A stretch of 33,555 nt of DNA from Gammaproteobacteria bacterium (GTDB taxonomy: Bacteria; Pseudomonadota; Gammaproteobacteria; JBGSLN01): assembly GCA_041740675.1 (NCBI GenBank), contig JBGSLN010000171.1, forward strand, positions 1-33,555. Direction: 5' to 3'. The notes under the pieces are model-generated. The model worked only from the letters and a program-made list of their open reading frames with translations. It made no database searches and was not told where the DNA came from. The position numbers and the translations under genes are program-made. This document shows positions 813 to 32,404 of the stretch, piece by piece; position 1 is the first letter of the stretch; each line of letters begins with the position of its first letter.

Positions 813-1199
813 CTATGTTTTTACGTGATAAATAAAATCGATGGCCCATCCTGCGATGGCTAAAATAAATAAAATTAAAGGCCAATATTCATTAATATTG
901 CTCAATATGACGGATAATTGTCGTGATTCTAGCGTTTTAATTTTATCTTTATGGTCAACTGAGACTTCAAATAATTTATCAGATTTTTCAATAATATCGA
1001 TAATCTTATTTTCTAATCCATTAATCCGATGGCTAAAATCTCTAGATGATTTGATAAACTCTAACACCTCCTCTAATTTCTCTGAGGAATGTGCGTGGTG
1101 ATCAACTAACCTGTTAATCTTGATGGTCATATCGCTTAGACAATCTTTAATAGACAAGATTTGCTCTTCATGACGGGACACTATTGCTTCGAGTTGCAT
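813..1199 (-). CDS. Coiled-coil protein with C-terminal TM helix, lysis-associated (holin/XhlA-like)
   Basis: Heptad-rich N-terminus, TM segment YWPLILFILAIAGWAIDFIY; last gene of the lysis cassette. Confidence 0.55.
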   Translation of the reverse strand: MQLEAIVSRHEEQILSIKDCLSDMTIKINRLVDHHAHSSEKLEEVLEFIKSSRDFSHRINGLENKIIDIIEKSDKLFEVSVDHKDKIKTLESRQLSVILSNINEYWPLILFILAIAGWAIDFIYHVKT

Positions 1200-1354
1200 A
1201 TAAATTCTAATGTGCTGATTAAATAATTTAATTGGTTTTCTAAGTGAGATTGTGATTTTAACGCTAATTCTAAATGCTGTTTCATTGTATTCACTTGCCT
1301 AATTAACTGTTTTATTTCTTTGTCTTGCTCTTCTATCGCTTTTTCTAAATCCAT
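1181..1354 (-). CDS. 57-aa coiled-coil protein (not in ORF track)
   Basis: MDLEKAIEEQDKEIKQLIRQVNTMKQHLELALKSQSHLENQLNYLISTLEFICNSKQ*; starts 5 nt after the holin stop and overlaps the next gene start. Confidence 0.7.
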   Translation of the reverse strand: MDLEKAIEEQDKEIKQLIRQVNTMKQHLELALKSQSHLENQLNYLISTLEFICNSKQ

Positions 1355-1359
1355 TCATA

Positions 1360-1767
1360 CTACTTACCATTGATGGACAATTTTTTGTCATAAGAACGAT
1401 ATGCCCCATATCCTAAATAGCCAGTCCCAAATAGCATCCATAAATCAGTGGGAATAGCCGTTAGCCACCCTTGAAACCCTGCTGTAATAGACGCTGATAA
1501 TTGAGGGTCTGTCGCATGTAATATTCCCATGGGAATTGCAGATAAAATAATAAGATACATGACGTATAAAAAGGCTGGGCGTGCTCGAGCGGTTATTTTA
1601 TCTTCGCTTTTAGCTTCCGTAGTAATCGCCGAATAGCGTAATTCATCCGCTTTAAACGCACCTTGATTTTGAAGCTCCAGTAGCTGTAACTCATATTTTT
1701 GTCGCTCATTCTTATCTGGGAATAACTTGTCTAAAATCGTTTTGCCAATTGAAAGAATGTCTAACAT
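1360..1767 (-). CDS. Holin, GTA 3TM-holin family
   Basis: G..ILDKLFPD start, AI..EA.S, RARPAFLY, LW.L...YLGY...RSYDK motifs; adjacent to lysozyme. Confidence 0.85.
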   Translation of the reverse strand: MLDILSIGKTILDKLFPDKNERQKYELQLLELQNQGAFKADELRYSAITTEAKSEDKITARARPAFLYVMYLIILSAIPMGILHATDPQLSASITAGFQGWLTAIPTDLWMLFGTGYLGYGAYRSYDKKLSINGK

Positions 1768-1768
1768 T

Positions 1769-2224
1769 TTAATCCCTTAGTAAAAATAAAATCTTTTCAC
1801 GTTCACGACGCTTGGTTAAACCCAAAACCTCTTTATATTGCTTATTATGCGTGTCAAACATCTTATTCCATCGTTTAAATTCATTAGCGGCTTCAATAAA
1901 CTTACCTTGATTTATAAACTTCAACATCGTAGAGGTCTTAAACTTAGTACAGCCAATATTAAAAACAAACGAAACTAACGCATCAAATTGATTCTGAGTA
2001 AGTTTAGTTTTAACCATTAAATTCACGCATATTTCAGCGGATTTTAAATCTTTTACTAATAAATCCTCAGCGTCAGAAGCAGAAATTACCTCTAAATCTT
2101 CTGTATTGCCTATTAAATGCCCATAGCCAATGGTAGGAAACCCAGCACTATCAAAGTACTTATCTAGACGTAACCCTTCTGCTTCCTTGACTAAATCAAT
2201 TCCAGCTTTGCTTACTTTCATCAT
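1769..2224 (-). CDS. Endolysin, GH24 phage lysozyme
   Basis: EGLRL..Y.D..G..TIGYGH catalytic motif, QNQFDALVSF.FN.G, GL..RR..E; start at MMKVSK after GGAG. Confidence 0.95.
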   Translation of the reverse strand: MMKVSKAGIDLVKEAEGLRLDKYFDSAGFPTIGYGHLIGNTEDLEVISASDAEDLLVKDLKSAEICVNLMVKTKLTQNQFDALVSFVFNIGCTKFKTSTMLKFINQGKFIEAANEFKRWNKMFDTHNKQYKEVLGLTKRREREKILFLLRD

Positions 2225-2234
2225 AAGATTCTCC

Positions 2235-2254
2235 ACGCCCATTTCGGGCGTTTT
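2235..2254 (+). terminator. GC hairpin abutting the endolysin RBS
   Basis: ACGCCC-ATTTC-GGGCGT followed by T-run on +; on - it lies immediately 5' of GGAG. Confidence 0.5.
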
Positions 2255-2268
2255 GAATTAAATTAAAA

Positions 2269-2364
2269 TTATAATGCGCTAAGAACAATGTAATTACCCA
2301 CTTCAGGAGTTGTAGAGTTAGTTGCTGCGCGGTCTAAATATAATCCAGATGAATCGAAAGCCAT
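2269..2364 (-). CDS. 31-aa small ORF upstream of the lysis genes (not in ORF track)
   Basis: MAFDSSGLYLDRAATNSTTPEVGNYIVLSAL* with RBS GAGGG 7 nt upstream. Confidence 0.5.
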   Translation of the reverse strand: MAFDSSGLYLDRAATNSTTPEVGNYIVLSAL

Positions 2365-2396
2365 GGTGTTACCCTCATTTTTTGTTATTAAATTAA

Positions 2397-2439
2397 ATTA
2401 TACATTCTATTTTTGATAATATCTAGAAACAATATTATC
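2397..2439 (-). promoter_or_regulatory. Putative sigma70 promoter for lysis genes with overlapping inverted repeat
   Basis: TAGATA-N17-TATAAT (2425-2397); GATAATAT-N9-ATATTATC at 2415-2439. Confidence 0.5.
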
Positions 2440-2489
2440 TACTTTTTGACAATATTTTGTTTCTTTGGTAGTGGTTTTAATTTTATTTT

Positions 2490-3566
2490 TTAAACTTCAT
2501 ATGTTAAAACTGTCCAAATTATATAATTAGCTGCTACTAATACATCCGATGCAACGCCGGCTGGAGTGCTTGCAACAAAGTTCATACTCGAAGTATTTCT
2601 TAAGCCTTGAGACACTAATGTTGTGGCAGACGCGGGAAGCGAAACAAGGTCAATTCTAGCGGAGCCTACGGGATTATAAGTATTTACGTTTTTTACCGTA
2701 TAAGGCAATGCGCCTACACGCAAAGAACCAGCTGCGCCAGAAAGCGAGCCAACCACATAAATTTGCACAATTATTTGATTTCCGTTGCGAGTGTAACGTC
2801 CTTCTCGTGCAGAATAACTTGGGGTACCAGCTGTTGTTCCTCCAAAAACGGTTGGAGAAAAAGTACTTTCTTCGTTTAAACTTAAAGTTCTCCACGCATT
2901 TGTTCCTGTTTTTTGAATAGTAATTATAGCGCTAGCTCGAACTACGGCAGTAAATCCTGTAAGTGTAACGCCGCCAGCTGGAGAAACGGTTAAAAAAACT
3001 AAAGGGTCAGCTGCGTTTCCGGTATATATTATTTGAATAATAGTTCCGATTGGAATAGCTGTTGTGGCGTTGGCAGGAATTGTGATAGTTGCCGATGAAG
3101 TAGTTGTCATTAAAATAGTAGAATTAACATCAGTTAACAATAATGTGCGAGCTGTTGTATTGTCTGTAATTATTTGTCGATAAATATTAGACTGGCTTAA
3201 CGTTATTGTTCGATTTGCACTTAAGTCTCCGCCTCCTGTTAATAATCCGGCTGCCGATATTGTAGTTGCTGTAGAAGCTTTACCTGTAAATTGGGTTTGT
3301 ATCGCACTTGTTACGCCTACTAAATAACTTAATTCTGTTGGCGTAACATTCGATGTTTCTAATTGATTGGATGCATTAATGTACGGAACGCGTGACTGTG
3401 TTAAAGACGAATAAGTGATAGTTGTGTTTTGAATAGTCCCGCCGGTAACAGCTATAGTATTAGCGTTTTGGGTAGCCATAGTCCCGCACGCTAAATTAGT
3501 GCGCGTAGTTGAAGCGGCTGTAACATCAACATTGCTAAAGTTATTAACTGAATTATTAATAGCCAT
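2490..3566 (-). CDS. Fibre/receptor-binding protein, 358 aa
   Basis: Start MAINNSVNN; phage fibre motifs TELSYL.GVTS.IQTQ, GLLTGGGDLSANRT, TITIP..AT.AIPIGT, and a C-terminal EE.TF.PT...GRYTR.GN domain. Confidence 0.75.
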   Translation of the reverse strand: MAINNSVNNFSNVDVTAASTTRTNLACGTMATQNANTIAVTGGTIQNTTITYSSLTQSRVPYINASNQLETSNVTPTELSYLVGVTSAIQTQFTGKASTATTISAAGLLTGGGDLSANRTITLSQSNIYRQIITDNTTARTLLLTDVNSTILMTTTSSATITIPANATTAIPIGTIIQIIYTGNAADPLVFLTVSPAGGVTLTGFTAVVRASAIITIQKTGTNAWRTLSLNEESTFSPTVFGGTTAGTPSYSAREGRYTRNGNQIIVQIYVVGSLSGAAGSLRVGALPYTVKNVNTYNPVGSARIDLVSLPASATTLVSQGLRNTSSMNFVASTPAGVASDVLVAANYIIWTVLTYEV

Positions 3567-3568
3567 TT

Positions 3569-3961
3569 TTATGCATTCCAAGTCACTGTTTTAGAAAATA
3601 TTTGTAAACTCGTGCCATTTAAATTAATTCCCGTTGAATTTTTAATATTTATAGTGCCATCTGTGTTTACAATAAATTGCGCGGTTATAACGGTGCCTGA
3701 TAAATTTACAAATCCGTGATCTATAGTTTGAACAGCTGGCCTTAAACCAGAAGGAACTCCAGCTCCATCGAGCGTAATATTAAGATTAGCATTTTGTGTA
3801 GTTGTTTGAGAAGCAAATGCGGGAAATTGAAGCGTAACTATTCTTCCAATACTTGTTAATTTAGTTGTAGTGCTCGGAAATGAAAAAGGTCCCCACGTTG
3901 CTAAAACATTTGTGTAATCAAAAACGCGATAAGCTCCATTAATAGAGTTATTAATAGCCAT
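3569..3961 (-). CDS. Small fibre-tip/RBP-head-like protein
   Basis: Start MAINNSING; IGRIVTLQ...P.GLRP...V..DG.I beta-sandwich pattern typical of fibre C-termini. Confidence 0.6.
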   Translation of the reverse strand: MAINNSINGAYRVFDYTNVLATWGPFSFPSTTTKLTSIGRIVTLQFPAFASQTTTQNANLNITLDGAGVPSGLRPAVQTIDHGFVNLSGTVITAQFIVNTDGTINIKNSTGINLNGTSLQIFSKTVTWNA

Positions 3962-3977
3962 AATAAAATCCTCTTTT

Positions 3978-5708
3978 TTATAATAAGTCTAAGTTACCGA
4001 TAGCATTCACTATCTTAAAAGTTGTATTAGCTACAATACACACTAAAAAAGCATCGTCGTATCGATTAGTTGATGCCACGTAACCTCCGGCTCCTGTTGT
4101 GGTCACGGCATTTCCAAGGCGTATACTTTGGCCTGAATTTTGTGCGACTCTCCAACCGCCTGCACCAAACCCTTGTATTGAAAATTTATCACCCACAGCA
4201 GCGGTTGCTGGCAATGTAAGAGTAACAAAAGCTGCGTTGTCTGTAATATAACCGTTATTAACTGCCATTGCTTGAGACGTGCCAGTTACTGTGGTCCAAG
4301 TGTTTAGTGCGCCGACTAATTCAGCGTCAATACCTTCTAAATGTCCTTTTACAGAAACGTTTGTTGGCGTGTAATTTACTGGAATATAATTAGCATCGAC
4401 AGCATCAGATACCGTCAATAAATTTAATGCCGCTGAATTAAGAAGAGTTGCTCCATTTGTTGGATAGCTTGCCGAATCAAGGTTAACTGTTAAGCTGCCA
4501 TCTGCTGTTAATTCATAAATACTATTGTTAGTAAGTGTATAACTCGATACAACAACGCCAGTTTTTGTAAAAGATAATTGATCATAAATTTTAGTGTTTG
4601 ATATTTCATATACAGAACCATAAGAAACGTTACTAAATGTTAAGTTATTAAAAGCAGAATTATTAATAAAAACACGGTCGGTATTATTAAATGTAATATC
4701 TAATAAAATAGCAGTCGGAGTAGAAGCATTAACTGCCGTGTAATTATCATTATTACTAAAATATATCGAAAGCTCTCCACCAAGGGGATTATTAAAAGTA
4801 ACAGTTTTGGTAGGTGATTTATAAGGCAAGCAATCAATAAAGTTTACCCACATTCCTGCGCCGCCTGCAACAAAATCAATATCCTGCGATTCGGCAAAAT
4901 GAAGATTAAGTCCTTGCGCTACAAATTGAGAAATTCCCGAAGTCCCAAATGGGCTGACAGGGGTAATAATATCTGCTGTCGTAAAATTAATTGTCGGTCT
5001 TCCTACGCCAATCAAATTTACCCACGGACGAATAGTCATTGCAGTGGACTGGGTATAATCCCCCTCAGTCATTATAATTGCAATCGGATTAGTAACCGAA
5101 GGTGATAAAGTAGCCGCGTAAGCAACCGCATAGTTGTATGATGCAAAAGGATTGTTATAACTTCCATCTCCTAAGCGTCCGGTAGGAGGATCGTCGTCGA
5201 TACCATTTTTAGAAACATAAATTAATTTAGAGGGGGGGTTATCTAAATTAGCTCCGTTAATTAAATAGTATTTGTTGCCACCCGATTCAGCAATTTTTTC
5301 TAATATTGCAACTTGGCCTGGCTTTAAACTATGTGTTTGGCCTGGAGTAGTTAAATTAATTACAGTGGGGTCACCGTTAGTTTTAATGTTTACAAATGAA
5401 GCCCCCGGATCAACAATTATCTTTGTCTTCCATCCAATAGGGGTAGTTAAACCGCCGTTGTCAAAATTAAAAATATCAATTGGTGTTGGGTTTACGCAGT
5501 AAATAACATTATTTAAATCTATATCTTTGCTAATTGAAAAACTGGCAGCTATAGTTCTAAATGTTTCAATAGAATTTACTTTATTATTTAGCGCTGTTTG
5601 TAATCCGGTTACTTGTGATAAACCGGCTAATTGTGCGTCCGAATTAACTTGCGCTAAAGTTACTTTTGTCGCAATGGATGCTTCTGTTGCTTGTGTCATT
5701 ATTGGCAT
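3978..5708 (-). CDS. Large fibre/spike protein with probable beta-helix, 576 aa
   Basis: RBS AGGA before MPIMTQ; QVTGLQTAL fibre motif; IYVSKNG.D...GDGS..NPF motif preceding an Asn-rich beta region; C-terminal W..VTGTSQAMAVNNGY..LTLP..AAVGD domain. Confidence 0.7.
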   Translation of the reverse strand: MPIMTQATEASIATKVTLAQVNSDAQLAGLSQVTGLQTALNNKVNSIETFRTIAASFSISKDIDLNNVIYCVNPTPIDIFNFDNGGLTTPIGWKTKIIVDPGASFVNIKTNGDPTVINLTTPGQTHSLKPGQVAILEKIAESGGNKYYLINGANLDNPPSKLIYVSKNGIDDDPPTGRLGDGSYNNPFASYNYAVAYAATLSPSVTNPIAIIMTEGDYTQSTAMTIRPWVNLIGVGRPTINFTTADIITPVSPFGTSGISQFVAQGLNLHFAESQDIDFVAGGAGMWVNFIDCLPYKSPTKTVTFNNPLGGELSIYFSNNDNYTAVNASTPTAILLDITFNNTDRVFINNSAFNNLTFSNVSYGSVYEISNTKIYDQLSFTKTGVVVSSYTLTNNSIYELTADGSLTVNLDSASYPTNGATLLNSAALNLLTVSDAVDANYIPVNYTPTNVSVKGHLEGIDAELVGALNTWTTVTGTSQAMAVNNGYITDNAAFVTLTLPATAAVGDKFSIQGFGAGGWRVAQNSGQSIRLGNAVTTTGAGGYVASTNRYDDAFLVCIVANTTFKIVNAIGNLDLL

Positions 5709-5722
5709 TTTAAAGATTCCTA

Positions 5723-6298
5723 TTAAGTTGTCCAAATATCTTCATTTTCATCGGCCCATTCATCTCCAAATTCATCATACCAAGCTTCTGAAATAGGCGG
5801 GGTAGGATTGCTTGCTGAAGAACATGTGATTACTGTGAGCTCATTAATATCGGCCGTGATTGCTATATTAAAATCTGTTTCTGAAAAGCCAGGAATAATT
5901 ACCCCGGTTGATGCACTTTTAATTGTGCCGTTTAAATTTGATGCGAAGCATTTTTGCCTAGATACTGAATTTTCATTTTCGTTTTTAACAAAAAAATCAC
6001 CGCATTTAAAAATTGTTACCGCTGTTCCTGAAGCAATAAATAAAGATGATTTTCCTAAATATTCATTTATAACAGCCAGCTGTTCTCGAGCAACAAAGCC
6101 ATCAGGCTTGCCTTCTCCAAAATTATTTACAATTCTACCGTTTTCATAAATCCAAACAAATCTTCCAGCATAAATTCCGTCTGTTCCAACAATATAAGCA
6201 TCCTCTACTCCTGGATAGGTAATTCTTGGGTTATCTGTTGCTATATCACCTGTAACAGCGGGCGCTTGTTGGATATTTATTTCAGTTTGAAACGACAT
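5723..6298 (-). CDS. Second capsid decoration/cement paralog with acidic Trp-rich tail
   Basis: Aligns by eye with 20720-21214 over nearly its full length (FQT....QQAPA..GD..T.NP..TYP, GTDG...GRFVW, ARE, G.I.GF.ETD). Confidence 0.85.
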   Translation of the reverse strand: MSFQTEINIQQAPAVTGDIATDNPRITYPGVEDAYIVGTDGIYAGRFVWIYENGRIVNNFGEGKPDGFVAREQLAVINEYLGKSSLFIASGTAVTIFKCGDFFVKNENENSVSRQKCFASNLNGTIKSASTGVIIPGFSETDFNIAITADINELTVITCSSASNPTPPISEAWYDEFGDEWADENEDIWTT

Positions 6299-6309
6299 AA
6301 TTGTTATTC

Positions 6310-7482
6310 TTAATTTGCTATTGCTGTAATATTCAAAAATTCAATTTGTACGGTTGCGCCACTTGCAATGGATTCTATGGCAAATAACTCAATGGTATCG
6401 CCCGCGGATAACGGCGCACCTGCATTTAATTGAAGAGGTAATGTCCCGCTGTTCACAAATGTTAATGAGTCTTGTCCAATTGAAGCTCCCCCATTGACCC
6501 TTAAATATAATTCGATAGTATCTGGACTTACTGTCGATACTACTATTTTTGTTGCAACGTTAATTTGATATTGCCCATTAAATGGAATAACAATTAAATT
6601 TGAAACAATCCAAGGTTGGCCTGATGCTTGTACTAGGTTTACTAAACCACCCCCTGTACCAACTGCCGTAGCTGCGCCATTGCCCAAAGCAAAATAATTG
6701 TTACTACCAACATTAGGTCTTTTTGCGTAAGTTGCCGCGGCTTCCGGTTTATTTAAATAATAAAATGCTAAATCTTGTATATTTACTCCATTGTAAACAC
6801 TGATTATAGTGTTTCCGCCGGGTAATAATGTGCTTGTTGGGCTACTAATGTTGTTAGTTTTAAAAATAACATTAACAGGCAATCCATTTGTAATCCGATA
6901 ATTTTTAGAAAAAATCTCTGGTACAATTAATGTAAGAGGAGCAGTTAATGTTACTCCTGAGCCTTGTTCTAATATAAAAATATCGTAAGCCGCTTGATTA
7001 ACTGTAAGCTCAACTTCTGTTGTTCCAGATGTAGGTATTGTTATAAGAAAAAAACCAGGAACGCTATCAGGAACCCAGCCAGCCGATGTTGAATTATTAT
7101 CAGGATCCGTGTCATTTCCATCTACTAAATTAATCCAATATCCTTGTTTGTCTGCGCGTAATATTCTTGCACCGATTGGATATCCTGTGATAAACGGATT
7201 AGAATTGTTTATATCTGCTGCATTATAAGTAAATCCCCCGCCTACTCCCTGCCAAGTAGACATAGCAGAAATTTCAAATAAAATTCCATTCATGTCTTGT
7301 CCTTCTGGTGGTCGACCAGTCGCTGGAGTATTAGGCATTGTTAAAGGAGGAAAACCCTTTTCATAAGATGCTTTTTGAGGATTTAAAGGGTCTGAGTTTA
7401 TCTCAGGAATTGGGTTAATATATCCCGCAGGCTCAGTATAGCAAAAAGGGTTTTTTATTTGTTTAACTATTGGAACGGTCAT
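6310..7482 (-). CDS. Tail fibre protein (baseplate-anchored)
   Basis: N-terminal PIP...ASY..GFPPLTM....PP.GQDMNGIL..IS and GYP.GA motifs typical of these myovirus fibres; follows baseplate genes. Confidence 0.85.
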   Translation of the reverse strand: MTVPIVKQIKNPFCYTEPAGYINPIPEINSDPLNPQKASYEKGFPPLTMPNTPATGRPPEGQDMNGILFEISAMSTWQGVGGGFTYNAADINNSNPFITGYPIGARILRADKQGYWINLVDGNDTDPDNNSTSAGWVPDSVPGFFLITIPTSGTTEVELTVNQAAYDIFILEQGSGVTLTAPLTLIVPEIFSKNYRITNGLPVNVIFKTNNISSPTSTLLPGGNTIISVYNGVNIQDLAFYYLNKPEAAATYAKRPNVGSNNYFALGNGAATAVGTGGGLVNLVQASGQPWIVSNLIVIPFNGQYQINVATKIVVSTVSPDTIELYLRVNGGASIGQDSLTFVNSGTLPLQLNAGAPLSAGDTIELFAIESIASGATVQIEFLNITAIAN

Positions 7483-7491
7483 TATCTTCCC

Positions 7492-8163
7492 TTAATTATT
7501 TTGATTATTAAAAACTGAAACATTAAATGGCCACGGGAAGTTTTCACTTTCTATTGGCTCATGCTCAGATTGGAACCCAAAGATTCTACCTTCGTCGTAT
7601 GTTACTAATACACCTGCGGGGACTGGCATAATACCGCTTTGATATATTATAGCATACTCTATAGGCGTAATGGTAATATTAAATATGTATCTTATGGTCA
7701 TATTGAACCCATCTACGACATAAACCGACCCTTCCCCAAATAAAAAACTTAATATAAAATTAAATGTTTTTATTGTAGGCCTTGATATATTTGCATAGGC
7801 TTTTGCAAGCAGCATTTTTCGATAGGTTTCATCATCTACTCTTATTGTTGGGGTAGAATCAAACCCATTGAAAAATGGAGCCACATTAAAAGGTGTATAA
7901 ACTTGGCCTTCATCATCATAATTTTCATTAAAGAAACCAAAATATTCTTTTTCTGAAACTACGTATAACAACCTGGAAATTCCTATTATTTGCCCCCAAA
8001 TATCTAAACCAAATCCTATTGCTGTTTCTATGTTCCAAATGTAGCGATAAAACTCATCAATGTTTATGGTCGGATCGATATTATTGTTCCAGTTATTTAT
8101 AACTTGCATCATAATGGACGAATTAGCATATTGGCTTAATATGGTTTGGTTTAAATTTTCCAT
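7492..8163 (-). CDS. Baseplate wedge protein (DUF2612)
   Basis: TILSQYANS, WNIETA.GFGLDIWG.IIG.SR, DD..YR..L.AKA..N motifs. Confidence 0.85.
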   Translation of the reverse strand: MENLNQTILSQYANSSIMMQVINNWNNNIDPTINIDEFYRYIWNIETAIGFGLDIWGQIIGISRLLYVVSEKEYFGFFNENYDDEGQVYTPFNVAPFFNGFDSTPTIRVDDETYRKMLLAKAYANISRPTIKTFNFILSFLFGEGSVYVVDGFNMTIRYIFNITITPIEYAIIYQSGIMPVPAGVLVTYDEGRIFGFQSEHEPIESENFPWPFNVSVFNNQNN

Positions 8164-9347
8164 TATGCCAAGTCCACAATAATATTGTTCAATGCTGTAA
8201 TAGGCATTTGTTCAATTGTAGCTTGTAATTGCAACGTACTTGGATTTGCAGTGTTCCCAACAAAAACAGAAATTATTTGTATGCGTGGGTCTACCGCAAG
8301 AATTGTTCCATAAAAAGTATTTGCTTCTATTAATGACCCTATTTTTTCATCGAAATTTGTTAAAATAGCATTTTGAATTTGACTGGCAATAGTATTTGGC
8401 AACGCAGGATTATTTCTAATGTTTATTCTAAAGAATACCGATAATTGTTGAGCTTCTTGGAATCTTACATTATACGCAATGCCATCATAAATCGTAATCA
8501 CAGTATCGCCATTATAATCACATCCCAAATCTTTTTTATCAAAAATAGCGGCGGCTACTTTTTCTCTAAGAGCAAGCGTCCAATTTTTGGCATAAGCGCA
8601 AATATAGAGAGAATGGGGAACTAAAGTTACGCCTGTTATTATTATTGGTTCGCTGGTCACATTATCTACACCATACACCTCTATAATTTCAGGTATTTTG
8701 AATACATTTGCTCGAATTGCGGCGATTGTGCCGGTTGCATTTGCAGCAACACTTTGTTTTCTTCGATATTCGTATTTTTGTCTGTTTTCAACAGGTATGC
8801 CAGGAACCCCAGCATTTGGGTTTGTAATAGAATCCCATCCATTGACTGTTTGATAAATAACGGTCAATGTATTGGCAGCACATGCAATTTCTCCAGTTTG
8901 AATATTATCTAAGATTGCAGTTGTAGTACCTGTGCTTGGGATTGTTATTACTGATATAAAAGTATATATATTTCCAACAGTATCTTTTGCTAATGTATTT
9001 GCAGGTATTACTGTTCCAGGTAATCCTGTCACCGTACAGGTAACTCTCGTTGCCGTCCCTGGTTTTCTCGGCAGAAAATATATTTCCCCAATGGCATCTT
9101 GAAAAAATCCATCGGCATATTCAGGGTTTATTTGATTAACTAGTAATGCAATCTCATTATTTTTTGATGTGATAATTGCAGCTAGGCTTGATGCTAATTG
9201 GCCTTGTGGTGTTCTTAAATCAACCCGCATATTTCCGCCAAAAACTTGAGAAAAGTCTTTTAAAACTCCGGTCAAAACTTCCGCCGCCGTTGGAACAATA
9301 ATACCGTCTTCGGTAAATAAAATATTTGGAACATTAGAAGTTAACAT
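8163..9347 (-). CDS. Baseplate J-like protein
   Basis: TPQGQLA, A.G.FQDAIG.IYFL.R, GWDSITN, E.R...E.RR..SV; start at MLTSNVP, coupled to upstream gene. Confidence 0.9.
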   Translation of the reverse strand: MLTSNVPNILFTEDGIIVPTAAEVLTGVLKDFSQVFGGNMRVDLRTPQGQLASSLAAIITSKNNEIALLVNQINPEYADGFFQDAIGEIYFLPRKPGTATRVTCTVTGLPGTVIPANTLAKDTVGNIYTFISVITIPSTGTTTAILDNIQTGEIACAANTLTVIYQTVNGWDSITNPNAGVPGIPVENRQKYEYRRKQSVAANATGTIAAIRANVFKIPEIIEVYGVDNVTSEPIIITGVTLVPHSLYICAYAKNWTLALREKVAAAIFDKKDLGCDYNGDTVITIYDGIAYNVRFQEAQQLSVFFRINIRNNPALPNTIASQIQNAILTNFDEKIGSLIEANTFYGTILAVDPRIQIISVFVGNTANPSTLQLQATIEQMPITALNNIIVDLA

Positions 9348-9678
9348 TATTTTCAGCCCCATTTTCATCAATAAAAATAATCCTACCGGATACTTTTCGT
9401 TGTTTAGCATCGTCAATAATACATTTTGCTGCAACAACCCCAGTCACTGAAAGTGCGGCTTGTTTAAGTTGTAAAGCCAAATAAGACAATGGCACTTGTT
9501 TACCTAATATATTTTTATAAGGCACCCCAATAGTGTTTTGATAATAAACTTCACCATAAAATGTCCTGGCCGCATTTGCAACGCTTTGGGCATATTCATA
9601 AGCGCCTTCTGTGATTGCTATATCGCCTAAGCCATCTAACATTAAGTCCCAGTTTTTATCTAATAAAAAACTTTTCAT
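9334..9678 (-). CDS. Baseplate wedge / sheath initiator (gp25/W-like)
   Basis: WDL.LD..G.IA, AQ.VA.A.R.F.GE.YY....G.PY; position between spike and J. Confidence 0.75.
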   Translation of the reverse strand: MKSFLLDKNWDLMLDGLGDIAITEGAYEYAQSVANAARTFYGEVYYQNTIGVPYKNILGKQVPLSYLALQLKQAALSVTGVVAAKCIIDDAKQRKVSGRIIFIDENGAENNVNF

Positions 9679-10316
9679 GATACGGGTTGTCCTGTGTTAC
9701 TTCCACCAGTTTGAACACCAGAATGAATATGTGTTTTTAAACTTATGCTATCTGCGGTAATATCTTGTTGCGCAACAATATTTCCGTTTACCTGTAAGTT
9801 ACTATCTATTATAACATTTTGTGCCTTAATAGTAATAACACCGCTTTTAAATTGAATAAAATTTTCAGGCGTTCCGTTTAAAATTCCACCAATATACATG
9901 CCGTCGGCAAAATCAAATTGTCGAAATGATGCAGGAGCACCATTTGTTTTTTGAGTTTTAATATTACTAATGTCTCTATTTGCAAAAACAGCAATTCCTA
10001 AATCTCCAGGGCTTGGATCCATAATTATTGCATTATTACCGCCCTGGTATCTCATGTAAGGAAGGCCAAAAACTGTACTATGAGGATATGTATTATTATT
10101 TCCGTCTATTTGATCAACCAATGGTATTACATTGACAAAACCAACAGGCTCTAAATCTCCTGTATTAGTACACTCAACAATCTTAACAATCGTGGCAGTT
10201 TGCATTTTTGCCAAAGCTTGCTGGATAACAAAATATAATTGGTTGTAATTACCGAAATAAGTTGCGGGTCTTGCTTGACCGTTATAAACCCGATCAGTTG
10301 TAGATTGCTGTGCCAA
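9675..10316 (-). CDS. Baseplate central spike (gpV/Gp138-like)
   Basis: P..GD.G..VFA.RDIS, R.FD.ADG and C-terminal HxH metal-binding tip (HIHSGVQTGG..TG). Confidence 0.9.
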   Translation of the reverse strand: MAQQSTTDRVYNGQARPATYFGNYNQLYFVIQQALAKMQTATIVKIVECTNTGDLEPVGFVNVIPLVDQIDGNNNTYPHSTVFGLPYMRYQGGNNAIIMDPSPGDLGIAVFANRDISNIKTQKTNGAPASFRQFDFADGMYIGGILNGTPENFIQFKSGVITIKAQNVIIDSNLQVNGNIVAQQDITADSISLKTHIHSGVQTGGSNTGQPVS

Positions 10317-11169
10317 GTTTAGCTCCTCTTATCATTGTAAAAAAATTCCCATTTGGTGTAACTGAACTTAAAGAATAGGAGATAGAGCTCGCTACCCATT
10401 CTCCGTTAGCACGAATAATATCGCTTTGTACTTTTATCTTTCCTCCATAAGTAACCAAAGGATTAAACAATGTTTGTACAATTACTCCTAGCCCATCAAA
10501 TGTAGGGTAGCCAATCATTCCTGTATTTTTATTTATTTCAGCGACAAAATTTTCTCTTGGAAACCCAGGATTGCAAATTGCAATTGTATTATTATCAATA
10601 TATAAATCTATGCCTGCTGCGATTGCGATTGATTTGATTTGTTCAATCCCTGTATTTGCAACGTATAAATTATTTATTTTTATCGTTACATTGTTATTCT
10701 CAAAATTGTAACCCAGTGATTTTGCGATCTGCCCTATGACTGTTGCAACGTCTGCGCTGCCTTTAAATGTTGTGACAGGATAAGGCTTTAAAGAGTTATA
10801 ATAAGCGCCTTGCGCTTGTATATATAAATAAACATCTGGCATTGTCTGGTAATAGCCGAAGGCATTGATAATATCTCCTTTAAATACTAACGTTTCATAT
10901 GTGCCGGCATCATCAATTGCATATATTTCAATTGTATTTTGGTTTACTAAATTCCTTGTCCACATCAATGTAGTCACATCATTCATGTCTTCTTGTTTTA
11001 CGCCAAATATTTGACATACTGAACAAGAAAATTGCGCTCCTCCAGCATTTATGACGTCAACATTTGACCTTAATCCACTAATTTCTAATGTGTTGGTTTT
11101 ATTAGAAGTAAATATGTTTTCTGCAAGTCTAATGATAAATTTAATTTGTTTTTTCGAGAAAGATGGCAT
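10294..11169 (-). CDS. Baseplate hub protein
   Basis: Position; VFKG.I..A, TGMIGYPT...G, NG.W motifs. Confidence 0.75.
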   Translation of the reverse strand: MPSFSKKQIKFIIRLAENIFTSNKTNTLEISGLRSNVDVINAGGAQFSCSVCQIFGVKQEDMNDVTTLMWTRNLVNQNTIEIYAIDDAGTYETLVFKGDIINAFGYYQTMPDVYLYIQAQGAYYNSLKPYPVTTFKGSADVATVIGQIAKSLGYNFENNNVTIKINNLYVANTGIEQIKSIAIAAGIDLYIDNNTIAICNPGFPRENFVAEINKNTGMIGYPTFDGLGVIVQTLFNPLVTYGGKIKVQSDIIRANGEWVASSISYSLSSVTPNGNFFTMIRGAKLGTAIYN

Positions 11170-19694: not shown

Positions 19695-20693
19695 TTAAAC
19701 TCCTATCATTCTTGCAACAAATACTGGGCGATAAATAATTGCCCCAACAGTACCTTGAGCTTTTTTCTGAGAATAAGCAGAGTGTTGAATAAAGAGAGGA
19801 AAAGCTCTTAATTTTAAGTTATAGCTAACTTCTTCTGTAAGTTGCCCTTCAATGTTGTCAGCTTTTAATCTTACTACTTCGCCAGCTAATGTTGACATTT
19901 GTGGAGCAGTAACAATTTTTAGATTTGGAAAGTTTGTTTTAATTAAAGTTAAAACATTAACATTATACTGGGTGGCTTTATTAAGGTTTACTGCAATATC
20001 TGGAGATAGTGCCATTGTCATATCAGTATTTGCATCAACAAGGCCATCACCTTGACTTATTAATTGTTTAACCAATAAAACAACATCGCCATAAACTTGA
20101 AGCGCATCTTTATTTTGCCAAATGATGTTAGGAGCTGTTCCAGATGGAGGAATAGTTGCTGGCAAACTTGGATCGTTTAATAATCCATAGTTTTGCAGTC
20201 CATCCACGCCAAAAAAATAACTTTTATTTTGATATTGATTAAGTGTCCAAATTGATGATTTATCTAATTGACTAACCCAATCAATTTGCGCCATGCCAAT
20301 TCGTTCTTGCTCAAGCTGTCCATATCGGGTAAATGTTTGATAAAGATAAGGTTGGCGTTGAGGGAAGTTAATATTGGCTTTAGCTGCGCCATCATTATTA
20401 TAATCGCCATATGATTCTACTTGGCCTGTGAATTCAAGCGTTTTAAACATAACCGTATTATCAGTCCATGAGCCTATCATTCTTTCTGAGCCAGCAACTT
20501 CTACAGCCTTTAATGGAGCAAATAAATATTCAATTACTTTTGGATCGATATAAGTGGTAAAAATAACTGGTAATGCTGAGTTAGGAGCACTGCCTAAAGT
20601 TGGTTGAGCATCTTCGGCCAAAATTTTATATTGATGATTATCAAAAATTACACCGTAGCTATTTAATTTTTTTTTCATTGGGGTTATTAACAT
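19695..20693 (-). CDS. Major capsid protein (DUF2184, HK97 fold)
   Basis: DAQP.L....N, TYIDP, G.W, E..G....YGD, N..YFFGV.GLQNYGLLNDP.L, T.GAI.YRP. Confidence 0.92.
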   Translation of the reverse strand: MLITPMKKKLNSYGVIFDNHQYKILAEDAQPTLGSAPNSALPVIFTTYIDPKVIEYLFAPLKAVEVAGSERMIGSWTDNTVMFKTLEFTGQVESYGDYNNDGAAKANINFPQRQPYLYQTFTRYGQLEQERIGMAQIDWVSQLDKSSIWTLNQYQNKSYFFGVDGLQNYGLLNDPSLPATIPPSGTAPNIIWQNKDALQVYGDVVLLVKQLISQGDGLVDANTDMTMALSPDIAVNLNKATQYNVNVLTLIKTNFPNLKIVTAPQMSTLAGEVVRLKADNIEGQLTEEVSYNLKLRAFPLFIQHSAYSQKKAQGTVGAIIYRPVFVARMIGV

Positions 20694-20719: not shown

Positions 20720-21214
20720 TTATAGACTGATCGTTGCTAATTCGCCCACTAAACAGCCAACTGTAATTGTATAATCTGTTTCGATGAAACCTGAGATTGT
20801 TGCGCCCGCATCTCCTGCTTGCATAGTCCCATCACTTAATTTAGCAAACGCTTTTTGTCCCCTAGCCGCTGCGCCCACTGTAGCTACAATCGCGTAATCA
20901 CCTTTTACATAAGCAGTAATAAAACTACCGCCAAAAACTGTATATCCTGCTTCTGCTAAATATGTAGTAATCTGGCCTTGTTCTTCTCGTGCAATTAATC
21001 CAAGTGGTTTAACAGCGGTAACACTTGAGTTAATTAATTGTCTGCCAGTCGTATCATCTGGATCTGGCCACACAAAACGCCCTACGATAACGCCATCGGT
21101 TCCAGCAACGAATCCCGCTTCTGGAGCTGGGTAAGTAGACCAAGGATTTTCAGTCACTCTATCCCCAGCCGTTGCCGGCGCTTGTTGCAATTTAACACTT
21201 GTTTGAAAACCCAT
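20720..21214 (-). CDS. Capsid decoration/cement protein
   Basis: FQ..V....APA.AGD...NP, G..G..VGRF.W; canonical position between scaffold and capsid genes. Confidence 0.8.
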   Translation of the reverse strand: MGFQTSVKLQQAPATAGDRVTENPWSTYPAPEAGFVAGTDGVIVGRFVWPDPDDTTGRQLINSSVTAVKPLGLIAREEQGQITTYLAEAGYTVFGGSFITAYVKGDYAIVATVGAAARGQKAFAKLSDGTMQAGDAGATISGFIETDYTITVGCLVGELATISL

Positions 21215-21225
21215 TTTTTGTCCCC

Positions 21226-22485
21226 TTAAATTTTAACTCGTGAGATACTTTTCGTTAGAAAAGATGCCCCATTATCTTTATCCATTGCTAGATTTGAAAC
21301 TTCAAACCGCTTATTATTTTCTTGAGATATTTGCATTTCACAAAGCCTCTTTAATGAAGTAATTTCTTTCAAATCATCGTGCTTAATTGATAAGGCATCT
21401 AATGCAAATCGATAAACATTTTCTGCATTATCAATGCCAGAAACTTCACCTATTAAAGGGCGAACATCATTTTTTGCTTGCTCTAGAGCAGCAAATTCTG
21501 AGCGGATGCTTTCTCTTATACTGGTGGCCATTTCATCCATAGCTTTTTTCATATCAGCCTCATTTTTTTTGTTATCAGTTTCGCTTTCTTCATCTTCTGT
21601 TTTTTTATCTTCTTTATTATCGTTTTCTTTATTATCATCTGTGTCTTCATCCATTCCTTTGTTTTCAAGCATTCCACAAATTTTTGCTATTTCTTCATCA
21701 CTAAATCCTTTATCTTTTAGCATTTTTTTAGCTGTTTGTTTGCTATCTTCTTCAACATCAGCCGTAATTGCTTCAGGATTATTTTCAGCTTCATTTTCTT
21801 GTTCTACACCTAATACAACATCTAATAGGTTATCTAGTTGCTGTTCGCTAATATCGATGTCCATTGCTTTAATTTTATTAAAGGCTTTTTTGTGTAATTT
21901 GTTTTTTTTCATTTCAAGCTCGTTTTCTTTTTTAAAAGGATTATTATCAGAAACTTTTACATCATGACCTGCCCTACCGGTCTCAACTAATGCAACATGA
22001 TTACCCACTATATTTTTCATCCAGCCATCATATTTCTCTCCTTCGAACTCACCTGGTTCCATGATGGCCTCATATGCGTAGCCGCATGACAACTCTTTCA
22101 TGCCACCTAATTTTTTATCAGCAGCTTCAATAGCCGCTATGGCTTCTTCATCCCAAAAAAACAAAGTGTTTTTGAGATAGGGGGCTTCAAAAATTGAATC
22201 GGTGCCTGTTGTTCCTATAACTAAGTCCTTGTTAGGGGAATCTGCAAACATAGGGGTATGTTTTTCGACAATTTGCACCCCATTAAAACTATCTGCCGCT
22301 TTTTGTAATTCTTTTCCTGGTCGATATAGATAATAAATTTTCTCCGGCTCTAACCCTAAGGCGTAATAATTCGGCACTTCTTTGCCATAATATGGATTAA
22401 TGGTCTCTTTAGAGATTGGCGAAGAATCAACCCTAAGCCGTCCATCTGCATCAATAAATCTTGAGCTTTTTTCTAATTTTTCCAT
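21226..22485 (-). CDS. Prohead protease/scaffold (DUF2213)
   Basis: D.DGRL.V..S.ISK..I.PY.G.E.P, ELSCGY, GNHVALV..GRAG.DV; acidic scaffold-like C-terminal half. Confidence 0.9.
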   Translation of the reverse strand: MEKLEKSSRFIDADGRLRVDSSPISKETINPYYGKEVPNYYALGLEPEKIYYLYRPGKELQKAADSFNGVQIVEKHTPMFADSPNKDLVIGTTGTDSIFEAPYLKNTLFFWDEEAIAAIEAADKKLGGMKELSCGYAYEAIMEPGEFEGEKYDGWMKNIVGNHVALVETGRAGHDVKVSDNNPFKKENELEMKKNKLHKKAFNKIKAMDIDISEQQLDNLLDVVLGVEQENEAENNPEAITADVEEDSKQTAKKMLKDKGFSDEEIAKICGMLENKGMDEDTDDNKENDNKEDKKTEDEESETDNKKNEADMKKAMDEMATSIRESIRSEFAALEQAKNDVRPLIGEVSGIDNAENVYRFALDALSIKHDDLKEITSLKRLCEMQISQENNKRFEVSNLAMDKDNGASFLTKSISRVKI

Positions 22486-31693: not shown

Positions 31694-32404
31694 ATGAGTT
31701 TTAAAGAACGACTTAAAAAAGCTAGACAAGCTAAAAACCTTACACAGGCGCAACTTGCGGATTTGTGCGGGCTTACTCAACCAGCAATAACTCGTTTAGA
31801 AAGTGGCGCTGTAAAAGCAACCACATATATTACAAAGCTAGCTGAAGTATTAGACGTAAGCGCTAAATGGCTTGAAGAAGGAGAAGAAGGCGATGACAAG
31901 CTAAATTTTTTAAAGAAACAAAAAGATCAAAATCATGATTATGATTTAATAATGGCGAGGATTGCCCCACATAAAATCCCACTTCTGGAATGGTCGGATT
32001 TCGATATATATAAAACAACTCCCGCCACTTTATTAAGTATAGATGATATATTAAGTATTGTTAGGGAGAAATCACGGATGTTCACCGTTTATTTAGATGA
32101 AAAAGAAGTTAGTTCACGCTTGGCTGCGTTGGTTATTAATAATTTAGACGCTATGAAGCCAATTACTTTCCATGAATGGGCGTTGATGAATGGAAACATT
32201 GTTATTATAGACTTCAATCTAAAACCTCTTCCTGGAGATATTGTATTAGCAAAAGTCAATAACTCTGTTACGGTGCGCCTTTTTGAGATGGATGCTGATA
32301 AGCAAGTATTAAAACCACTTAATACCCAATACCCTATTATCACCGAGAATTTTGAAGTGTTAGGTACCATTATTCAAGTCATAAGAAAAAGGGATGAAAA
32401 ATAA
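31694..32404 (+). CDS. cI: CI-like repressor (XRE HTH plus S24-like domain)
   Basis: RLKKAR....LTQ..LA...G..Q..I..LE.G HTH; IPLL.W, M.P, GDIV.A, LKPLN..YP, V.G.I. Confidence 0.9.
   Translation: MSFKERLKKARQAKNLTQAQLADLCGLTQPAITRLESGAVKATTYITKLAEVLDVSAKWLEEGEEGDDKLNFLKKQKDQNHDYDLIMARIAPHKIPLLEWSDFDIYKTTPATLLSIDDILSIVREKSRMFTVYLDEKEVSSRLAALVINNLDAMKPITFHEWALMNGNIVIIDFNLKPLPGDIVLAKVNNSVTVRLFEMDADKQVLKPLNTQYPIITENFEVLGTIIQVIRKRDEK

Follow-up and report, generated by a model that had tools for sequence, protein, structure and literature searches.

The gene at positions 5723 to 6298 (minus strand; product P0001) is a real, conserved and specialised paralog of a capsid cement protein, and the reading that we favour, at a probability of roughly 0.4, is that its product is a capsid-bound adaptor whose C-terminal tail docks the fibre-like protein encoded immediately downstream, both together making up a head-fibre module. 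The stretch of DNA analysed (the window, 33,555 nt) is an entire 33.5-kb contig (C171) of a 2.78-Mb, 341-contig metagenome-assembled genome (MAG), and it encodes a temperate-looking myophage with almost all of its genes on the minus strand. The features to which we refer are as follows.

2490 to 3581, minus strand: P0162, fibre-like protein of 363 aa (weak PHROG matches, E = 1.6e-6 to 6.5e-4)
3569 to 3961, minus strand: P0161, 130 aa, downstream of the fibre-like gene (no family match)
3978 to 5708, minus strand: P0155, fibre- or spike-like protein of 576 aa (P0003 when read from the upstream TTG at 5735; no family match)
5455 to 5789, no strand given: cassette in common with IMG/VR contig L003 (blastn), comprising the tail repeats and about 85 to 95 codons of the next gene
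5723 to 6298, minus strand: P0001, relocated cement (decoration) paralog, 191 aa plus stop
5726 to 5821, minus strand: Pro/Ser linker and three-repeat acidic Trp tail of P0001 (WYDEFGDE / WADENEDI / WTT), codons 160 to 191
6227 to 6298, minus strand: N-loop of P0001, codons 1 to 24, counterpart of the capsid-binding element in Pam3 gp6 (excerpts of PMC9942802)
6310 to 7482, minus strand: P0004, tail fibre of 390 aa (phrog_12796, E = 1.4e-38)
7492 to 8163, minus strand: P0160, DUF2612 baseplate wedge protein (PF11041, E = 8.4e-54)
19695 to 20693, minus strand: major capsid protein (phrog_264, E = 2.5e-59)
20720 to 21214, minus strand: P0002, canonical cement protein, between the protease/scaffold and capsid genes
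21226 to 22485, minus strand: DUF2213 head maturation protease/scaffold (PF09979, E = 2.2e-44; phrog_2229, E = 4.5e-107)

The window also carries replication genes, a CI-like repressor (31694 to 32404), genes for a large terminase, a portal and a Mu-F-like protein, a set of tail genes (neck, sheath, tube, tape measure, hub, gp25-like protein and Baseplate_J), an endolysin and a holin; no integrase was recognised among its scanned open reading frames (ORFs). Of 400 genomes scored from the host's class, just two (G000 and G047) carry the cement family, so that one may question whether the contig was binned correctly. P0001 begins 11 nt past the tail-fibre gene and stops 14 nt short of the ATG at 5708, with which the fibre-like gene starts. 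A scan of positions 1000 to 9000 gave promoter-like and terminator-like sequences at chance level (33 versus 31.7 expected and 8 versus 5.4 expected, respectively).

A cement gene among the fibre genes

Aligned end to end, P0001 (191 aa) and P0002 (164 aa), whose genes lie 14.4 kb apart, are identical at 60 of 164 positions (37%; E = 4e-35). Both exceed the gathering score (27) of the two Pfam cement models, with 68.4 and 73.7 bits, respectively, for PF23982 (XM1_gp53_minor_capsid) and 48.1 and 52.5 bits for PF22758 (Phage_cement), and both match phrog_2122 ("minor head protein") at an E value of about 1e-42 (8.5e-42 for P0001). A preliminary description of this locus, made from the sequence, had claimed a full-length decoration paralog some 14 kb away, which is what these comparisons bear out. 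At E values up to 0.01, just the two cement families appeared in a Pfam scan of P0001. Among the PDB sequences, P0001 matched only Ig-domain proteins, at weak E values, and these matches were dismissed as chance; a word-indexed protein search with P0001 returned nothing beyond P0001 itself.

The AF2 model of P0001 (pLDDT above 90 for residues 11 to 160, about 55 to 60 in the monomer for the tail at 160 to 191) has the fold of the cement family, with a beta-tulip N-domain and a beta-strand C-domain, and the protein retains the conserved N-terminal loop of that family. Its best Foldseek matches were the cement chains of Pam3, XM1, T1 and E217; phi29 gp12 and phi29 gp8.5 were the sole tail or fibre proteins among the rows, and all higher rows were capsid decoration proteins. 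The gene itself is flanked not by the protease/scaffold and capsid genes, as is canonical, but by the tail-fibre gene and the fibre-like gene.

Relatives were collected by HMMER against 1.84 billion representatives, which yielded 485 proteins at E values up to 1e-3. In a tree of 120 family rows, computed from the first 165 residues only (tails excluded), P0001, P0005, P0006, P0007 and P0009 form one clade (SH-aLRT 100), sister to a canonical group in which both P0002 and the P0007 phage's own canonical protein are found (support of 71, and of 91 one node up). This placement of the tailed clade points to an old duplication, both copies of which were retained.

The survey of synteny in related phages that had been proposed as a check brought to light one other lineage with the same layout and a canonical copy, namely, the phage encoding P0007, which we located in IMG/VR and JGI contigs (L008, L009 and L017). 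Its gene order is that of the window (DUF2612 protein, tail fibre, cement-like protein and a spike-like protein of 479 aa), and it too (record G062) keeps a canonical cement gene between its protease and capsid genes. In L008, P0007 is encoded at 9001 to 9573 and the 479-aa protein at 9578 to 11017. The tail fibre there is 32% identical to P0004 over the full length, the 479-aa protein has weak similarity (24% identity) to the fibre-like protein of the window (residues 171 to 475), and the relocated copies of the two lineages are only about 43% identical. Elsewhere, the canonical position prevails: it was found at 52 of 60 metagenome loci (with one relocated copy, that of the P0007 phage, and seven loci too short to tell), at all 15 genome loci and at 78 of the best 80 of 469 IMG/VR loci, the other two being the P0007 phage. 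Each of the 141 matching INPHARED records has exactly one cement-family place, which is canonical in the one examined, Aeromonas phage vB_AsaM-56. In that record (L094; NC_019527.1), a single 2736-nt coding sequence (3699 to 6434) is annotated on the opposite strand over the region in which one would look for the genes of protease, cement and capsid protein; within it, the cement match is on the plus strand, and the annotation is probably wrong. Within the fetched loci, no tailed protein was found at the canonical position, where none of the proteins carries a linker-plus-repeat tail. The literature on cement proteins and head fibres, as excerpted here, describes neither a cement paralog in a fibre block nor a separate, cement-docked fibre.

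In canonical-position relatives, between one and four repeat domains are inserted immediately ahead of the last strands, which suggests that the C-terminal end of the fold likely faces outward and that this outer face tolerates additions. Family members of 230 to 460 aa have one to four tandem repeats of about 75 aa each, with a motif like G-T-x-G-G-x-G-T-Y and no Pfam match; they comprise the protein at L006 1501 to 2631 (G047), which is in the canonical position, and P0013, P0050, P0083, P0092, P0098, P0105 and P0107.

A repeat tail coupled to a fibre N-terminus

Residues 160 to 191 of P0001 (SSASNPTPPISEAWYDEFGDEWADENEDIWTT) hold the Pro/Ser linker and the repeated W-x-D-E already pointed out in the preliminary description. 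The same tail recurs in an IMG/VR contig (L003), with 20 of the 32 linker and tail positions invariant, and to judge from this recurrence it is no chance feature. All four nearest relatives (P0005, P0006, P0007 and P0009; 190 to 201 aa) likewise extend beyond the core with a linker and a short tail. As we read the five sequences, the common plan is two repeats of 7 to 9 residues and a half repeat, with each repeat starting as hydrophobic, any residue, hydrophobic or polar, and acidic or polar; examples are WYDEFGDE/WADENEDI/WTT, IITESGLF/LTTESGLT/LITE, YLTDQYGN/FLIDQYDN/FLVD and YVMYNGA/YITYNGQ/YIIYTP. The chemistry thus varies (acidic Trp, Tyr/Asn/Gly or Thr/Glu/Ser/Gly), while the three-repeat strand-turn pattern is kept. 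Retention of this pattern without the acidic Trp chemistry in the four sisters argues for a protein-docking element; a eukaryotic-type acidic Trp motif was rejected for the same reason, and the earlier suggestion of adhesion to a eukaryotic host or matrix found no support. We conjecture that each of the three repeats serves one subunit of a trimeric partner, or else that the three form a small three-stranded sheet. The 8-residue period of the tail is reminiscent of the beta-helix repeat of T4 gp5. A charge partner for the acidic tail was not obvious, the N-terminal domain of the fibre-like protein not being basic by our own count.

Among the 150 hits listed, no protein outside the five-member clade carries the linker and three-repeat tail, and a search for short proteins carrying the P0001 tail found none. 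Apart from the L003 record, a degenerate DNA pattern for the tail matched just one locus, in an Actinomycetota MAG (L005, CAWDVM010000008.1), where the single exact match is probably due to chance.

L003 (IMGVR_UViG_3300003313_000007; record G061) is a complete genome of 40,126 bp with direct terminal repeats, belonging to a myophage otherwise unrelated to that of the window. Its head module (portal, scaffold and a 453-aa capsid protein) differs from the window's, and no PF23982 match was found in this genome. What it does match is residues 154 to 191 of P0001 only, in a stand-alone 44-aa ORF (7986 to 8120) with a good ribosome-binding site, which encodes a short hydrophobic start, a Pro-rich linker and the acidic Trp tail. 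Directly before this ORF lies a tail-fibre gene, the C-terminal domain of whose product is 30% identical to that of P0004; after it comes the gene for a 633-aa protein, the first 147 residues of which are 56% identical to residues 10 to 157 of P0003. The possibility that the L003 tail fibre is fused with the 44-aa ORF by a programmed frameshift was rejected, as the sequence contains no slippery site. At the DNA level, blastn returned a single shared stretch (window positions 5455 to 5789; 72.6% over 350 columns), which begins at the tail repeats and ends about 85 to 95 codons into the next gene. Because the tail and the fibre N-terminus are the only DNA common to the window and L003, they travel as one cassette; the Trp tail adjoins the fibre N-terminus in both of the phages with visible context.

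A comparison of the two phages gave dN/dS values of 0.05 for fibre codons 1 to 22, 0.21 for codons 23 to 100 and 0.33 for 21 codons of the tail. By this measure, the first 22 codons of the fibre-like gene are under very strong purifying selection, and the tail value is weak evidence of constraint. Separately, dS is lower at the junction (window 5640 to 5790 versus L003 8049 to 8210), at 0.43 in the tail and 0.63 in fibre codons 1 to 22, than deeper in the fibre gene (1.85), which points either to a junction exchanged more recently or to constraint at the nucleotide level.

The 576-aa protein encoded next to the tail had no Pfam, PHROG or PDB-sequence match, and from its position, composition and relatives it appears to be fibre-like. 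The mechanical ORF (P0003, 585 aa) starts at the TTG at 5735 and overlaps P0001; the protein database holds the 576-aa form, and we place the start at the ATG at 5708 because relatives begin MPIMTQ. The AF2 model (from a 6-row alignment) has a mean pLDDT of 43, too low for claims about the fold. The N-terminal 150 aa or so make up a conserved anchor domain, for which the ESM Atlas returned phage clusters without names (0.89 to 0.92) and tail-related families (0.86 to 0.87), both of which serve as leads only. In a search with the N-terminal region, the first 17 residues (MPIMTQATEASIATKVT) were identical in three proteins that are 36 to 56% identical to P0003 over that region; a DNA pattern for these residues matched the L003 record only and nothing in the genome contigs. 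P0158 agrees with the window's fibre in its first 22 residues. A further protein, P0156, is 70% identical to the window's fibre-like protein and yet has different first residues, up to about position 45 (MGIKISGLPEG...), which marks the first 20 to 45 residues or so as an exchangeable module. Taken with the codon comparison, the extreme N-terminus of the fibre behaves as an exchangeable, strongly constrained attachment element.

The preliminary description had spoken of three fibre-like genes at this place. This is a weaker point of that description: the 576-aa protein is fibre-like by context, the 363-aa P0162 has only weak PHROG matches (virion structural, E = 1.6e-6; tail fibre/minor tail, E = 2.8e-4 to 6.5e-4), and the 130-aa P0161 matches nothing in Pfam or PHROG. 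The two genes past the fibre-like gene have common first residues, MAINNS[IV]N (window 3569 to 3961 and 2490 to 3566), the probable start of P0162 being the ATG at 3566, which gives it the N-terminus of P0161. In the P0007 phage, the genes at L008 11027 to 11653 and 11663 to 12001 have the common start MSVKISN. Such paired genes after the fibre look like alternative proteins for one attachment site. The tail fibre on the other side, P0004, had chance-level matches only among PDB sequences.

On these observations, we judge it probable that the P0001 tail docks the downstream fibre-like protein. The earlier claim that the tail anchors the fibre thus gains from the cassette and from the constraint on the first fibre codons, but the same pair occurs in L003 without a cement gene. 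The 44-aa ORF there may be a relic of the recombination that imported the fibre module, or it may be a minimal adaptor; unless it is a relic, the fibre can presumably be mounted without cement.

Two alternatives are weighed by these same data. One makes P0001 no more than a further decoration protein, with a tail that works on the capsid surface (in charge, aggregation control or polymer binding) and a gene that was moved by an accident of recombination. Cement family, fold and N-loop fit this, as does the display of extra domains by other family members, and decoration genes may be remote from the head module, as in Bas63, where one is found over 10 kb away from the structural module (excerpts of PMC12609058). 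An accident would hardly explain, however, why the position is the same in two lineages whose relocated copies have diverged so far, or why the tail and the start of the next gene are inherited together, and a repeat pattern that is kept while its chemistry changes suits docking better than a role in charge or adhesion; we regard this alternative as very improbable.

The other is that P0001 is an assembly chaperone, a transient trimeric template whose tails gather three chains of the neighbouring fibre before it leaves. The slot that P0001 occupies, immediately past the tail-fibre gene (with its 11-nt gap), is the usual place for the gene of a fibre chaperone, and a bare tail peptide persists in L003. 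Against this stand the Pfam scan, in which cement families and no chaperone family appeared, and the conserved capsid-gripping N-loop, for which a chaperone would have no role. This explanation, too, seems improbable, if a shade less so than an accidentally moved decoration protein.

The N-loop and the site of the base

In Pam3, 140 gp6 trimers occupy the three-fold and quasi-three-fold axes, and the capsid protein is contacted mostly through an N-loop of 23 residues (excerpts of PMC9942802); in XM1 gp53, residues 1 to 95 bind the capsid protein and residues 95 to 160 trimerise (excerpts of PMC10457771). Of the residues that characterise the canonical N-loop, M1, F3, Q4, N8 and G17 are present in all five relocated proteins, F19, A20 and N23 in four and P24 in three. 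Identity over the loop is 0.52 within the relocated clade (10 pairs) and 0.49 within the sister canonical clade (66 pairs), and between groups it is 0.46 to 0.47 for relocated versus canonical and 0.49 for canonical versus canonical proteins. P0001 and its own P0002 are more alike in the loop (0.57; rank 7 of 115) than in the rest of the protein (0.32; rank 85 of 115); no such excess is seen in the second phage, where the N-loop ranks 23 of 115 and the rest 28 of 115 against its own canonical copy. An N-loop that is neither relaxed nor changed argues against P0001 having left the capsid, and we infer from the sequences that this loop still binds the capsid protein. For the base as a whole, continued capsid binding is rated a little above even.

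P0001 would accordingly be a virion adaptor that arose by duplication of a capsid cement protein. The two-domain core (a beta-tulip and a C-terminal domain) and the N-loop would act as in trimeric cement at the three-fold and quasi-three-fold sites of an HK97-type capsid, so that P0001 would most likely form trimers and replace P0002 at some such sites. The three strand-like repeats behind the Pro/Ser linker (WYDE.., WADE.., IWTT) would be a peptide that docks the 576-aa protein by its N-terminal domain, and the two proteins together would constitute a two-gene head fibre. In a more specific form, which we offer tentatively, the cement paralog sits at some three-fold sites and mounts an exchangeable fibre or spike through one repeat per subunit of a trimeric partner. 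Conceivably these are the five sites adjacent to the portal, in which case the association of the gene with tail genes would be explained. If this form is true, the docking peptide and the fibre N-terminus are a portable plug-and-socket cassette, swapped independently of the base.

Genes of one assembly line usually cluster, and several observations count against a place on the head. The gene stays in the tail-fibre block, beside the baseplate genes, in both lineages with known context. The tail and fibre N-terminus occur in L003 with a different head module and no cement gene, and the N-loop match to the cognate canonical copy, seen in the window, is missing from the second phage. The rival reading is a tail-located adaptor: the cement-fold trimer would be a joint on the baseplate rim or the tail fibre, its tail mounting the 576-aa protein as a second or branched set of fibres, and it would resemble the hinge or adaptor proteins of multi-fibre phages. 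The order DUF2612 wedge, tail fibre, P0001 and fibre-like protein is conserved in two lineages, and in the phage without a cement gene the tail and fibre N-terminus persist after the tail-fibre gene. Moreover, XM1 gp17, a DUF2612-type wedge subunit of which P0160 is the counterpart, holds twelve spikes by two flexible segments (excerpts of PMC10457771). By our own reading, P0160 has aromatic and acidic stretches of similar flavour. A new partner, however, should have reshaped or relaxed the N-loop, which in the solved relatives grips only the capsid protein and which is as conserved here as in canonical cement, and the Foldseek rows place capsid decoration proteins above phi29 gp12 and gp8.5. 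A tail location is rather unlikely in our estimate, if less so than a chaperone.

Comparison with known systems

The usual view of decoration proteins is that they stabilise capsids or carry fused display domains. If the capsid-bound adaptor is real, P0001 shows how a phage head can bear an exchangeable protein for receptor binding or matrix degradation that has a gene of its own; if the base is on the tail, it shows how a tail recruits a head protein. Either outcome bears on the identity of head-fibre proteins and their anchors, which are still unknown for 7-7-1 (excerpts of PMC12796354), and on the swapping of fibre modules between unrelated virions. The short tail and the fibre N-terminal domain would, in addition, be a compact natural plug-and-socket pair for capsid display.

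Compared with XM1 gp53, Pam3 gp6 and E217 gp24, the trimeric beta-tulip cement proteins (PF23982 and PF22758), P0001 differs in three respects: its gene is situated in the fibre block, the phage has a canonical copy as well, and the protein carries an added linker and three-repeat C-terminal tail. With Tfa, Mu U and P2 G it has in common a gene directly after the tail-fibre gene and a small product with an acidic end, but it has the fold of a cement protein and no match to their families. A precedent for docking through flexible peptides exists in XM1 gp17, the likeness being one of analogy only: there, short flexible segments buried in a trimeric spike hold that spike (excerpts of PMC10457771), and the window's wedge is of the same type, but the segments of gp17 sit on a baseplate protein, whereas the candidate docking peptide of P0001 sits on a cement fold.

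A parallel to the proposed arrangement would be phi29, of whose gp8.5 the two proteins would be a split counterpart. The C-terminal autochaperone fragment of the phi29 tail appendage gp12 (PDB 3gqh and 3suc) is likewise among the Foldseek rows for P0001. The base of gp8.5 occupies quasi-three-fold capsid sites and bears a fibre (excerpts of PMC6542822), and its fold of two small beta-barrels is found in P0001 as well. The two proteins have no detectable sequence similarity, with 11% identity in the structural alignment, and gp8.5 binds the Ig domain of its capsid protein rather than using an N-loop. In gp8.5 the fibre (residues 117 to 280) belongs to the same chain as the base; in P0001 only 32 residues of linker and tail come after the base, and a gene of its own would encode the fibre.
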